Source: an uncultured Gammaproteobacteria bacterium (lineage in GTDB: Bacteria; Pseudomonadota; Gammaproteobacteria; GCA-001735895). From it: DNA of 64,000 nucleotides. Below are positions 44,245 through 64,000 of the stretch, piece after piece; positions within the stretch are counted from its first letter, which is position 1, and every line of letters starts with the position of its first letter. The stretch is from NCBI GenBank assembly GCA_913061315.1, contig CAJXUC010000006.1, forward strand, positions 9,078 through 73,077, in the 5' to 3' direction. Position numbers and translations under genes: made by a program. The notes beneath the pieces were generated by a model. That model had not been told where the DNA came from. It saw nothing but the letters and a program-made list of their open reading frames with translations, and made no database searches.

Positions 44245-44379
44245 ATTTTCACCATAAATCGTAACTTATTTGCAATTCGCAATTGATATTTAATATAGCC
44301 TCCTTATAATTGTCCGGCTCAAAAGAGGCGTGTGACTTTTTATTACGCCAAAAATTCAACATACCGGATATTTCTTAAT

Positions 44380-44595
44380 ATGCCATCAGTTAAAGTAAAG
44401 GACAACGAGCCGTTTGATTTTGCACTTCGTCGTTTCAAAAGATCTTGCGAAAAAGCCGGTGTTCTAACCGAAACACGTCGTCGTCAACATTACGAAAAAC
44501 CCACAGCTGTGCGAAAGCGTAAATCTGCCGCCGCAGTAAAACGTAATTTCAAACGTATTTCTAAGGATTTCGGTACTCGTCGTCGTATGTATTAA
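44380..44595 (+). CDS. rpsU: 30S ribosomal protein S21
   Basis: [29 protein letters not shown] is near-identical to the E. coli S21 N-terminus; 71 aa. Confidence 0.9.
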
Positions 44596-44607
44596 GTTTC
44601 TGTTGAA

Positions 44608-45060
44608 ATGTCAGAAGCTAACCTAAAAGTACAACTTCAGGCTGATATGAAGTCGTCAATGAAAACTGGCGATAAGTCCCGGCTTCTAGTAATTCGTACA
44701 ATGCTTGCTGCTATCAAGCAGATCGAAGTCGATGAAAGAATTGAACTCGACGATGATCGCATCGTCGGTGTTCTTGATAAGATGTTAAAGCAGCGGCGTG
44801 AGTCAATCAGCCAGTTCACTTCAGCTGGACGCGATGATCTGATTGCGATTGAAGAAGCCGAACTTGTCATTATCAAAGAATTTTTGCCAGAGGCTTTTTC
44901 TGAAAAAGAAATAGCGGCTCTCATTGAGCTAGCAATTAGCAACACAGGGGCTACCTCGATAAAGGATATGGGCAAGGTAATGGGCATTCTTAAACCTCAA
45001 CTGCAAGGTCGAGCTGACGTTGGAAAAGTTAGTCAATTAATAAAGCACAAATTGACTTAA
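44608..45060 (+). CDS. GatB/YqeY domain protein
   Basis: 150 aa YqeY-like; occupies the position between rpsU and dnaG seen in Vibrio/Shewanella. Confidence 0.75.
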   Translation: MSEANLKVQLQADMKSSMKTGDKSRLLVIRTMLAAIKQIEVDERIELDDDRIVGVLDKMLKQRRESISQFTSAGRDDLIAIEEAELVIIKEFLPEAFSEKEIAALIELAISNTGATSIKDMGKVMGILKPQLQGRADVGKVSQLIKHKLT

Positions 45061-45079
45061 CACACAGCGCTAATAACAA

Positions 45080-60100: not shown

Positions 60101-61670
60101 ACCAGGTATCACCCTGATATCACCGCCACCACATCATGATATCTATTCGATAGAAGATTTAGCCCAGCTGATCTTCGACTTGAAGCAAGTCAACCCGAAG
60201 GCACTCGTCTCAGTCAAGCTTGTTTCAGAAGCGGGTGTCGGAACCATCGCCGCGGGTGTTGCCAAATCCTATGCAGACTTAATTACCATCGCAGGCTATG
60301 ACGGTGGCACCGGAGCCAGTCCATTAACATCGGTCAAGTATGCTGGGGCACCGTGGGAGCTAGGTCTCACTGAAACACACCAAGTTTTGCGCGCCAATAA
60401 AATGCGTGACCGAGTTCGAGTACAAACCGACGGTGGTTTAAAAACCGGATTAGACGTTATCAAAGCAGCCATATTAGGTGCAGAAAGCTTTGGTTTTGGC
60501 ACAGGGCCCATGGTTGCCATGGGCTGTAAATACCTTCGTATTTGCCATCTCAACAATTGTGCTACCGGTGTGGCTACCCAAAATGTAACGTTAAGAAAGG
60601 TACACTTTGTTGGTAACGTTGAAAAAGTTAAAAACTACTTCCGGTTTATTGCGAGAGATGTACGAGAAATTATGGCGACTATTGGTATTGCCAAAATGGA
60701 AGATCTTATCGGCCGGACTGATTTGCTCGAAGCCATCGAAGGGACTACGCCAAGCCAAAGGAACCTAAATCTTGAACCACTCTTGTTTGATGGTGGCCTC
60801 GATCCTAACTTGCCGCAGTTTTGCACTCAAGCAAGCAACCAGCCTTTTGATAAAGGCGAATTAGCCGAACAGATGGTGATCGATTGTTTACCCACAATCC
60901 AAAAAGGCAGCGGGGGTGAATTTCATTACAAGGTGAAGAATATTCATCGATCTATTGGCGCCCGATTATCCGGTGAGATCGCCAGAGTGCATGGCAATCA
61001 CGGCATGTCAGATAATCCTATTCACTTAAATTTATCAGGTTCAGCCGGTCAAAGCTTTGGCGTTTGGAATGCCGGTGGACTCAACATGACACTCGAAGGT
61101 GATGCCAACGATTATGTTGGTAAAGGCATGGCGGGAGGCAAACTTGTTATTGCTCCACCCAAAAACAGTCACTTCAAAACGCAAGACTCAACCATCATTG
61201 GTAACACCTGCTTATACGGCGCAACGGGTGGCAAACTCCTTGCGGCAGGCTTAGCAGGAGAACGTTTTGCTGTCAGAAACTCAGGTGCTCACGCCATGGT
61301 CGAAGGTATTGGTGATCATGGCTGCGAATACATGACCGGGGGTATCGTGACTATTCTAGGCAATACTGGCCTCAATTTTGGTGCAGGTATGACAGGGGGA
61401 ATCGCTTATGTGCTTGATCTTGACCGAAACTTTATTGATCGAGTGAACAAAGAACTTATTGATATTCATCGTATTACTGACGAAAGCATGGAGAGTCATG
61501 GCGCCTACTTGGATGAAGCTATTCGAGAGTATGTTGCCGAAACAGGTAGTGAATGGGGCCAATATATACTCGAAAACTTCAATCACTTTAAGCGCAAAAT
61601 CTGGATGGTAAAACCAAAAGCGGCTGAATTTGATTCGTTGTCAGTTACGTTACAAAAAAATGCTAGCTAA
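57186..61670 (+). CDS. gltB: Glutamate synthase large (alpha) subunit
   Basis: N-terminal amidotransferase Cys (DSCGFG), FMN/3Fe-4S and GXGXG C-terminal domains; 1494 aa. Confidence 0.95.
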
Positions 61671-61692
61671 ATAAAGGATCTCACTTGAGCTA

Positions 61693-63411
61693 ATGGCTGG
61701 TAAAATTCCGCGCTTATTTATCGATGACTTACTCAATCGTGTTGATATTGTAGAAGTCATCGATACTCGTGTTCCCCTGAAAAAAAAGGGCAAGGAGTAC
61801 TGGGCCTGCTGCCCTTTTCATGGTGAAAAATCAGCATCCTTCTCAGTCAGCCAAAACAAGCAGTTTTATCACTGTTTTGGCTGTCAAATGTCCGGTAATG
61901 CCATCAGCTTTTTGATGGAATACGACCATATGGAATTTGTTGAAGCAATAGAAACACTCGCCCAGATAATGGGATTAGAGGTACCTTATGAACAAGGTCA
62001 GGCACCTTCGGCACCCACCCATAGTGTTGAACCGCTGTACGACTCTTTAGAACAATGTTCAAGTTACTTCCAATCTCAATTAAAACAAAACCCACTGGCC
62101 ATTGAATACCTCAAACAGCGCGGTATTAGTGGTGATATTGCGCGTGATTTCGCCATTGGCTTTGCTCCCAAAGGCTGGAACAACCTAACGGGCAACAAAA
62201 AAACACTGACTGAAGCTGGCATGTTAATAGAAAAAGACAACGGCCAGCCTTATGATCGTTTTCGTCATCGCTTAATGTTTCCCATCCGAGATCGCCGAGG
62301 CAGAACCATCGCCTTTGGTGGCCGTGTTATCGATCCAGAAGACAACCCTAAATATTTGAATTCACCAGAATCACCAGTGTTTCACAAAGGCAGTGAAATA
62401 TACGGTTTATTTGAGCTTAAAAAGGGATCGAATAATATCGATCATATTCTCATCACAGAGGGTTATATGGACGTCATTGGGCTCGCCCAGCACGGTGTCA
62501 AAACGGCAGTTGCTACTTTAGGTACTGCCATAAATAATGAACAAATAGAGAAACTATTCCGCAGCAGCAAATCATTAATTTTTTGTTTTGACGGTGACAA
62601 TGCAGGCAAGAAAGCAGCCTGGCGGTCACTTGAACAATGTTTGACCTCTTTAAAAGAAGGCCGTATCGCCCGCTTCTTGTTTTTACCCGAAGGGCACGAC
62701 CCAGATAGTTACATACAAGAGTTTGGGCAACAGGCCTATCTCGAAGAGGTTCAAAAAGCCACGACACTCAGTGAGTTTTTATTTGATACCTTGATAGCAG
62801 AATGTGACATTTCGTCCTCAGAAGGCAAGGCAATGCTACTCGACCGTTTAGATCCCTACGTCAAACAGATACCGTTACAAAGCCTAAAGGACCAAATACT
62901 GAGCAGAGCGGAAGGACTCACCTCAGATAAACACGAAGCTCGGCTTCAAAAATTGCTTTCGCGCAGCAATAATAATCACGAAACCAGAATCCTTGCACCC
63001 GAACAAACTTGGACACCGACTCGACTCGCCATCAATCTATTACTTCAAAAACCAGCCTTGGCCCAGGGCATAGGCAATCAATACGAACTTTCAGAAACCA
63101 AAATACCGGGTATTGACCTGTTACTCAAAATTCTAGATCGAATACAAGATGAGCCAGACATCAGTACACAAAATTTACTCCAACGATTTCAAGGTGATGC
63201 ACATGAATCTCATTTGTATCAGTTAGCTGCTATGCGACCTCAGGTAGAGGACGAAGCCAGTTTGAAAAAAATGTTTCAAGACTGCCTTAACCGTCTCCAG
63301 AAAGAATACATAAAATATCGAAGAAATCTTTTAATCAAAAAACTCCAGTCAGAGGGTGCTATTTCAGAGTCAGAGAAAACTGAACTGAAACAATTGTTCA
63401 CTATTCAGTAA
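61693..63411 (+). CDS. dnaG: DNA primase
   Basis: Zinc-binding CPFHGEKSASFSV...CFGC, TOPRIM (ITEGYMDVI), C-terminal DnaB-interaction domain. Confidence 0.9.
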   Translation: MAGKIPRLFIDDLLNRVDIVEVIDTRVPLKKKGKEYWACCPFHGEKSASFSVSQNKQFYHCFGCQMSGNAISFLMEYDHMEFVEAIETLAQIMGLEVPYEQGQAPSAPTHSVEPLYDSLEQCSSYFQSQLKQNPLAIEYLKQRGISGDIARDFAIGFAPKGWNNLTGNKKTLTEAGMLIEKDNGQPYDRFRHRLMFPIRDRRGRTIAFGGRVIDPEDNPKYLNSPESPVFHKGSEIYGLFELKKGSNNIDHILITEGYMDVIGLAQHGVKTAVATLGTAINNEQIEKLFRSSKSLIFCFDGDNAGKKAAWRSLEQCLTSLKEGRIARFLFLPEGHDPDSYIQEFGQQAYLEEVQKATTLSEFLFDTLIAECDISSSEGKAMLLDRLDPYVKQIPLQSLKDQILSRAEGLTSDKHEARLQKLLSRSNNNHETRILAPEQTWTPTRLAINLLLQKPALAQGIGNQYELSETKIPGIDLLLKILDRIQDEPDISTQNLLQRFQGDAHESHLYQLAAMRPQVEDEASLKKMFQDCLNRLQKEYIKYRRNLLIKKLQSEGAISESEKTELKQLFTIQ

Positions 63412-63508
63412 TTTGTCAACGTAAAACCCTCAAAAACCTTGAAAAATTGAGATAAGGTCTTATATACTGGCGGATTACGCTGTCCTATTCCATCATCGTC
63501 GAGGCACC

Positions 63509-64000
63509 ATGGATAAAGATCAACAATCACGTCTTAAAGAGCTCATAGCAAAAGGCAAAGAGCAAGGATTCTTGACCTATTCCGAGGTTAACGACCACCT
63601 GCCAGAAGGCATCGTAGAGCCTGAACAAATTGAAGATATCATCCGCATGATTAATGACATGGGTATTAAAGTCCATGAATCAGCGCCAGCAGAAAGCAAT
63701 GATATTTTAAACGACAACGAAACAGAGACAGATGAGGACGCCGCTGAAGAAGCCGCTGCCGCACTGGCCTCACTCGACAGTGAATTTGGTCGAACCACTG
63801 ACCCAGTCCGTATGTACATGCGTGAAATGGGTACGGTCGAGCTACTCACTCGTGAAGGCGAGATTAAAATTGCTCGACGCATTGAACACGGCCTAAACCA
63901 AGCCATGAGCTCACTCGCACGCTATCCCGACACCATGCGAATGATCATTGACAAATACAGCGCAGTGCGAGAAGAAGAAGCTAAGCTGACGGACGTACTG
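63509..64000 (+). CDS. rpoD: RNA polymerase sigma-70, 5'-partial in window (runs off the 3' end)
   Basis: MDKDQQSRLKELIAKGKEQGFLTYSEVNDHLPE followed by an acidic spacer and TDPVRMYMREMG (region 1.2); no stop in the window so absent from the ORF track. Confidence 0.9.
   Translation, partial: MDKDQQSRLKELIAKGKEQGFLTYSEVNDHLPEGIVEPEQIEDIIRMINDMGIKVHESAPAESNDILNDNETETDEDAAEEAAAALASLDSEFGRTTDPVRMYMREMGTVELLTREGEIKIARRIEHGLNQAMSSLARYPDTMRMIIDKYSAVREEEAKLTDVL

Follow-up and report, generated by a model that had tools for sequence, protein, structure and literature searches.

The macromolecular-synthesis (MMS) operon has the order rpsU-dnaG-rpoD in E. coli and rpsU-yqeY-dnaG-rpoD in Pseudomonas and many other Proteobacteria. 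A second conserved cluster of the Gammaproteobacteria consists of mrcA and, divergent from it, pilMNOPQ (hofMNOPQ)-aroK-aroB-damX; Pseudomonas-like genomes extend this cluster by gltB-gltD-hemE (PA5034-PA5045 in PAO1). In the 64,000-nt stretch of contig CAJXUC010000006.1 analysed here (the window), from an uncultured gammaproteobacterium, these genes share a single locus with the order tsaD (opposite strand), rpsU, yqeY, 19 nt, gltD, hemE, 43 nt, mrcA (opposite strand), pilMNOPQ, aroK, aroB, gltB, 22 nt, dnaG, rpoD. We consider it probable, at roughly 80%, that this arrangement goes back to one old rearrangement with four breakpoints, which merged two conserved clusters, became fixed and has since been passed on vertically. 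The first would have been rpsU-yqeY-dnaG-rpoD with tsaD divergent from it, and the second pilMNOPQ-aroKB-damX-gltB-gltD-hemE with mrcA divergent from it.

Genes in the window were identified from an open reading frame (ORF) map and NCBIfam profile scans, which confirmed every gene and coordinate named in an earlier note on this DNA. The locus comprises the following features.

43225-44244, minus strand: tsaD (TIGR03723, 418 bits), divergent from rpsU; the unchanged left flank of the MMS locus
44380-44595, plus strand: rpsU, ribosomal protein S21, 71 aa (TIGR00030, 83.6 bits, on residues 18-75 of the ORF at 44332-44595)
44608-45060, plus strand: YqeY-domain gene, 150 aa (PF09424 on the identical protein of locus L162)
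45061-45079, plus strand: junction 1, the yqeY/gltD gap, 19 nt (from the sequence)
45080-46501, plus strand: gltD, glutamate synthase small subunit, gamma-type family (TIGR01318, 749 bits)
46528-47598, plus strand: hemE, uroporphyrinogen decarboxylase (TIGR01464, 446 bits)
47599-47641, no strand: junction 2, the convergent hemE/mrcA gap, 43 nt (from the sequence)
47642-50125, minus strand: mrcA (PBP1A), divergent from pilM (NF008643, 748 bits; TIGR02074, 578 bits)
50310-55243, plus strand: pilM, pilN, pilO, pilP and pilQ, type IV pilus assembly and secretin (TIGR01175, TIGR02515), with pilM at 50310-51377 and pilQ at 53102-55243
55431-55952 and 55956-57044, plus strand: aroK and aroB (NF003456, TIGR01357)
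57186-61670, plus strand: gltB, glutamate synthase large subunit (NF008730, 2516 bits)
61671-61692, plus strand: junction 3, the gltB/dnaG gap, 22 nt (from the sequence)
61693-63411, plus strand: dnaG, primase (TIGR01391, 452 bits)
63510-64000, plus strand: 5' part of rpoD, which continues past the end of the window (from the sequence; a full 602-aa sigma-70 gene on L162)

In the comparisons below the window is called WIN and the loci of relatives carry L numbers. L162, a contig identical to the window, has rpsU called as a 71-aa gene, and its identical proteins gave the assignments of PilN, PilO and PilP (PF05137, PF04350 and PF04351).

The locus retains several features of the MMS operon: tsaD is transcribed away from rpsU; yqeY, the usual partner between rpsU and dnaG in outgroups, comes next after rpsU; and dnaG is followed directly by rpoD after a 98-nt gap that contains a promoter-like element. 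It differs in that 16,591 nt, counted from the first position of gltD to the last of gltB and including mrcA on the opposite strand, lie between yqeY and dnaG. The contiguity of the operon fails, and dnaG follows gltB instead. Inside this block, mrcA is divergent from pilM, pilMNOPQ-aroK-aroB is contiguous, and gene content, order and orientation are those of the mrcA/pil/aro/damX cluster. Unlike that cluster, the window copy is circularly permuted, with gltD-hemE first, is embedded in the MMS locus and has no damX-like gene after aroB. The block is thus the conserved mrcA/pil/aro/gltB/gltD/hemE cluster in circularly permuted form, set between yqeY and dnaG, as the earlier note had proposed; the gaps of 19, 43 and 22 nt were exactly as it had given them, as was the block length of 16.6 kb. 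Neither glutamate synthase subunit gene is damaged, and both belong to the usual gammaproteobacterial type (TIGR01318 and NF008730). In contrast to the gltBD operon, in which the two genes are adjacent as in ~60 outgroup loci, gltD in the window lies 10.7 kb upstream of gltB (~11 kb in the earlier note) and in another putative transcription unit. Divergence upstream of dnaG is described for Gram-positive MMS operons (PMC2824700). In the literature on MMS operon gene order we found no description of the present variant, and it is apparently undescribed.

The window organism has also been assembled independently from JGI, ENA and TARA data (L081, L162-L164), with an identical order, so that the order is not an assembly artefact or chimera. 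To follow the order into other genomes, GltD was scanned against one genome per species, and the resulting 80 loci, whose GltD proteins are 65-75% identical to that of the window, were mapped by tblastn. At nine of the 80, yqeY is directly followed by gltD-hemE, with mrcA on the opposite strand, pilMNOPQ and aroK next where the sequence reaches. Five of these loci (L001-L005) are from unclassified gammaproteobacterial metagenome-assembled genomes (MAGs) with GltD 71-75% identical, three (L007, L010 and L045) are labelled Granulosicoccaceae and the ninth is L066. A further locus, L009, begins at gltD and has the onward order of the rearranged loci. Junctions 1 and 2 are therefore seen at 9-10 genome loci, four of them from MAGs with a Granulosicoccaceae label. 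The remaining GltD loci with upstream sequence (~60) are all canonical, with pilQ-aroK-aroB followed after 1-3 kb by gltB-gltD-hemE, and include Pseudomonas, Marinobacter, Halomonas, Cellvibrionaceae, Thioalkalispiraceae and Acidiferrobacteraceae.

A second survey scanned metagenomes with DnaG, and the rearranged order was recognised in at least 20 contigs with DnaG 59-95% identical. Among loci with DnaG at least 59% identical, gltB lies directly before dnaG in 14, and six short contigs carry the gltB C-terminus at this position; the others with recognisable upstream sequence are later derived variants of the rearranged order. At ~45 metagenome loci with DnaG at most 48% identical, the order is the canonical one, with tsaD divergent from rpsU, (yqeY) and dnaG. 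The tsaD neighbour is common to canonical and rearranged relatives. Both canonical orders given in the earlier note were seen in actual loci. Single contigs carry the whole rearranged order, tsaD through to dnaG or rpoD, in L162 (the window organism), L168 (PilQ 68% identical), L165 (a 226-kb contig) and L167 (a closed 5.2-Mb contig). Compared with the window, L165 and L167 have PilQ 44-48% and GltB 63-64% identical, and overall the rearranged order reaches relatives with DnaG down to about 46-60% identity. The synteny comparison thus recovered the same junctions in related genomes. The order is old, stable and shared by a deep clade that includes Granulosicoccaceae-labelled MAGs, and it is not an event in this genome; the earlier note would be mistaken if taken to describe a recent one.

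The damX-like gene distinguishes the branches of this clade. In L165-L167, a DamX-like AAA_22/SPOR gene lies between aroB and gltB, as in canonical genomes, and the gene is also present in L102 and L134. The aroB-gltB gap of the window is only 141 nt and has no such gene, and L100 and L107 have an unannotated gap of about 0.9-1 kb at this position. The window's sublineage has lost the damX-like gene; deeper branches keep it.

Direct or inverted repeats touching 45061-45079, 47599-47641 or 61671-61692 were searched for, as the earlier note had suggested for short direct repeats, and none were found, as expected of an old event. NCBIfam scans of the block genes revealed only housekeeping families and no integrase, transposase or other mobility gene. 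The GC content of the block (0.39-0.47) is inside the range of the window with no compositional break, and the GC skew at third codon positions (GC3 skew) of the block genes equals that of other plus-strand genes. A mobile element was not involved. A recent insertion, a genomic island or a contig-specific chimera, for which nothing speaks except the unusual order itself, is extremely improbable: independent assemblies and distant relatives with PilQ only 44-49% identical have the same order, its distribution is not patchy but deep-clade-wide, and repeats, mobility genes and a compositional break are all missing.

Phylogenies of the proteins encoded at the locus are consistent with common descent of the arrangement. 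A neighbour-joining (NJ) tree of DnaG, computed with no bootstrap, separated the main-clade loci as a single group from the canonical ones. In the NJ tree computed for GltB (76 loci, 1465 columns), every locus with gltB before dnaG fell into one group, which splits into two subclades, both with a bootstrap of 100%: the window's clade and a Granulosicoccaceae-like clade (L165, L166 and L167). This group is sister to canonical-order Gammaproteobacteria of the sulfur-oxidiser type. As point estimates, the GltB tree and a four-protein tree (GltB, GltD, HemE and AroB) both unite the two rearranged clades. Since they have three derived junctions in common, a single origin is most economical. Most likely the order originated a single time, in an ancestor common to the Granulosicoccaceae-like clade and the uncultured marine clade of the window, and was inherited by the window.

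Several sublineages carry later changes on the rearranged backbone. In L161 (the closed 3.72-Mb MAG CP070646.1, PilQ 70% identical), the order is rpsU-yqeY, 284 nt, hemE, mrcA on the opposite strand, pilMNOPQ-aroKB-gltB'-gltD'-dnaG, with GltB' only 43% and GltD' only 35% identical to the window proteins. The yqeY-hemE gap contains an in-frame gltD relic (L161:2676-2921) in which residues 1-52 are fused to 437-468 (E about 1e-10 each). This relic is a mini-ORF of ~85 codons, is of the gamma type and has a start that matches the gltD start in the window; it may have survived because it keeps translation or transcription continuous into hemE. A gltD relic between yqeY and hemE implies that the window-type order is ancestral to the L161 variant. 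No relic of the old gltB was found beside the foreign gltBD pair in L161. In L098, the gltB'/gltD' pair is 89% and 87% identical to that of L161, and the L098 GltD' has TIGR01317 as its best match. TIGR01317-type gltB-gltD pairs occupy the old gltB slot before dnaG at L161:14132-20253 and L098:38-4342, and also at L113:59-3532. In L161, the split gltB and gltD have thus been replaced by an acquired, foreign-type adjacent pair, and with L098 it has regained the adjacency of the gltBD operon.

In L169 (a 1.12-Mb contig), both glt genes are missing from the locus, and the yqeY-hemE and aroB-dnaG gaps are 17 nt (3299-3317) and 11 nt (13856-13868), respectively. The dnaG and rpoD gene calls of this contig are shortened or split, possibly by long-read frameshifts. 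L102-L104 have aroB-damX-dnaG with no gltB at the locus, and in L134, which is nearer to the Granulosicoccaceae-like clade, damX is also directly before dnaG. Since the separated gltB and gltD are both replaced in L161 and both missing from the locus in L169, they are still functionally tied.

The three junctions differ in their conservation. Junction 2 is the least conserved: the gap is 43 nt in the window, ranges from 0 nt to 421 nt in relatives, reaches 5 kb in L045 and is broken in L166. Junctions 1 and 3, which lie inside the putative transcription units described below, are the conserved ones. The L045 gap (L045:12536-17601, a Granulosicoccaceae MAG) holds four unannotated plus-strand ORFs over ~5 kb between hemE and mrcA, and the L166 genes beyond mrcA have no similarity to this insert. 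A repeat, GTCATTGCGAGG...GAAGCAATC, resembling repetitive extragenic palindromes or miniature inverted-repeat transposable elements (REP/MITE), occurs in the gltB-dnaG gap of L106 (7448-7767) and in the hemE/mrcA gap of L004 (12474-12891). Copies of it in these gaps suggest that REP/MITE-type elements inflate the enlarged junctions of relatives.

To see how the merged locus might be transcribed, the gaps were scanned for promoter-like and terminator-like sites. Three candidate promoters were found in the window by consensus scan.

44283-44310, plus strand: promoter-like site upstream of rpsU, TTGATA-16-TATAAT, 11/12 consensus, of putative function
57106-57135, plus strand: promoter-like site in the aroB-gltB gap, TTGAAG-18-TATACT, with the -10 kept among relatives
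63439-63468, plus strand: promoter-like element before rpoD, TTGAAA-18-TATACT, conserved

Junction 1 spans 9-19 nt in relatives from the main clade; in the Granulosicoccaceae-like clade it measures 50-163 nt. The site scan found no terminator-like site at this junction. Judging from this spacing, gltD-hemE would be transcribed together with rpsU-yqeY from the strong rpsU promoter-like site. In the hemE/mrcA gap, no hairpin or terminator was found beyond chance (z = -0.36). The -10 element of the aroB-gltB gap, GGTATAAT/GGTATACT, is conserved in WIN, L105, L084, L088, L087 and L091, suggesting that gltB probably has, and would be read from, its own promoter. With mrcA on the opposite strand between yqeY and dnaG, transcription of dnaG from the rpsU promoters is structurally unlikely. 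The junction 3 gap is 18-33 nt in WIN, L105, L082, L084, L088, L100, L101, L107 and L166, with no promoter-like or terminator-like site in the site scan. Whichever gene stands before dnaG, the gap between the two is short, with 11 nt for aroB, 18-33 nt for gltB and 31 nt for damX. A gap this short, free of promoter-like and terminator-like sites, argues that dnaG depends on upstream read-through, and the spacing suggests that dnaG would be transcribed from the gene in front, here gltB. All main-clade loci examined retain the motif CTTGGAAAAA...TATATACT between dnaG and rpoD, and rpoD would keep its own conserved promoter. Collectively, the sequence points to rpsU-yqeY-gltD-hemE and gltB-dnaG as likely transcription units. 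The read-through from gltB into dnaG proposed in the earlier note agrees with these gaps. That note had set against its own reading an ancient, stable order in related genomes with independent internal promoters for dnaG: the ancient order is indeed what the relatives have, but no independent dnaG promoter was found, only that of rpoD being conserved.

Some observations weigh against a single old rearrangement with read-through into dnaG. Some relatives have gaps of 66-318 nt (gltB to dnaG) or 145-257 nt (gltD2 to dnaG), which leave room for a promoter, and a promoter may also lie inside the gltB 3' end. Synonymous sites at the gltB 3' end revealed no excess conservation, and so no sign of an embedded dnaG promoter, although this is weak evidence. 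Four main-clade loci (L089, L093, L095 and L099) have 210-567 nt of unmatched sequence upstream of dnaG; the probes used on it were the C-terminal parts of GltB, GltD2 and DamX, together with YqeY. Finally, the union of the two rearranged subclades has a bootstrap of only 46% with GltB and 58% with GltB, GltD, HemE and AroB, in NJ trees of few proteins. This low support of 46-58% for a single rearranged clade speaks for an alternative in which the order arose in one clade and came to the other through horizontal transfer of a ~19-kb segment, or in which it arose twice. We regard either history as improbable, because the point estimates of both trees join the clades, convergence on all three junctions is itself improbable and the identities of all block genes between the clades drop together (roughly 35-67%), as vertical descent predicts. 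A single origin followed by vertical inheritance remains our preferred reading.

By our own derivation, the derived order requires four breakpoints and two double-cut-and-join steps, in agreement with the earlier note's minimum of two rearrangements. Two successive inversions would achieve this if the ancestral loci were oppositely oriented, for example on opposite replichores. The first, with ends at yqeY/dnaG and gltB/gltD, would create junctions 1 and 3 together, and the second would bring the mrcA end beside hemE. We give this course somewhat less than even odds. Large inversions are the commonest bacterial rearrangement, and cells with the intermediate order would be viable. Just such an intermediate-like state is seen in L166 (Granulosicoccus sp.), with mrcA to gltB-dnaG in place and unrelated genes beyond mrcA. 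However, L166 pairs with L165 (90% bootstrap), and in their clade L165 and L167 have hemE beside mrcA; nested among loci with all junctions, its intermediate-like state is probably secondary.

The other course, raised in the earlier note, is that the mrcA to hemE cluster was excised as a circle, joining hemE to mrcA, and that this circle, opened again at the gltB/gltD boundary, was inserted at the boundary of yqeY and dnaG. Two recombination events would then explain all three new junctions, and the block matches the canonical cluster of ~60 genomes in gene content and orientation. This course is possible but doubtful, as the block bears no trace of site-specific recombination, neither repeats nor a recombinase, and no mechanism is known by which 17 kb of housekeeping genes would be excised and re-inserted unless a mobile element took part. 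The cost of two double-cut-and-join steps is the same for the circle and the inversions. Because both predict identical final adjacencies, the adjacency at an empty site cannot distinguish them; the circle and the two inversions are not separable from extant end states, and nothing favours the circle.

Other observations concern the window as a whole. Among ORFs of at least 150 aa in positions 1-64000, the coding-strand GC3 skew is -0.14 for plus-strand genes and +0.14 for minus-strand genes. From these signs the plus strand resembles the lagging strand, in which case replication would meet rpsU, gltB, dnaG and the pil genes head-on. Relative to oriC, the rpsU-dnaG-rpoD operon of E. coli is oriented in the same way. 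The lowest GC of the window (0.33-0.35) is at 7000-11000, where a 521-aa protein (8135-9700, minus strand) combines a Tll0287-like sensor domain with an adenylate/guanylate cyclase domain. Regulatory RNAs and rRNA were sought with Rfam over the full length of the window, with no matches.

The arrangement could also have been selected because it rewired expression, tying primase to gltB, and so to nitrogen assimilation, or to another preceding gene of the pil/aro cluster, and placing gltD and hemE under the growth-rate-controlled rpsU promoter. We consider such selection unlikely. If true, replication priming in this clade would be coupled to nitrogen status in a way not known from other organisms, and the very short, repeatedly re-created gaps before dnaG (11-33 nt) would signify obligatory read-through or translational coupling.

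The finding is a change of synteny and reveals no new molecular system. The three shared junctions are a rare-genomic-change marker that unites a large, abundant marine gammaproteobacterial clade with Granulosicoccaceae-like bacteria. The later co-loss and co-replacement of the separated gltB and gltD illustrate functional linkage without physical linkage. The locus as a whole is a natural experiment on operon disruption, in which the MMS and gltBD operons were broken at once and the result has been stable over deep time.

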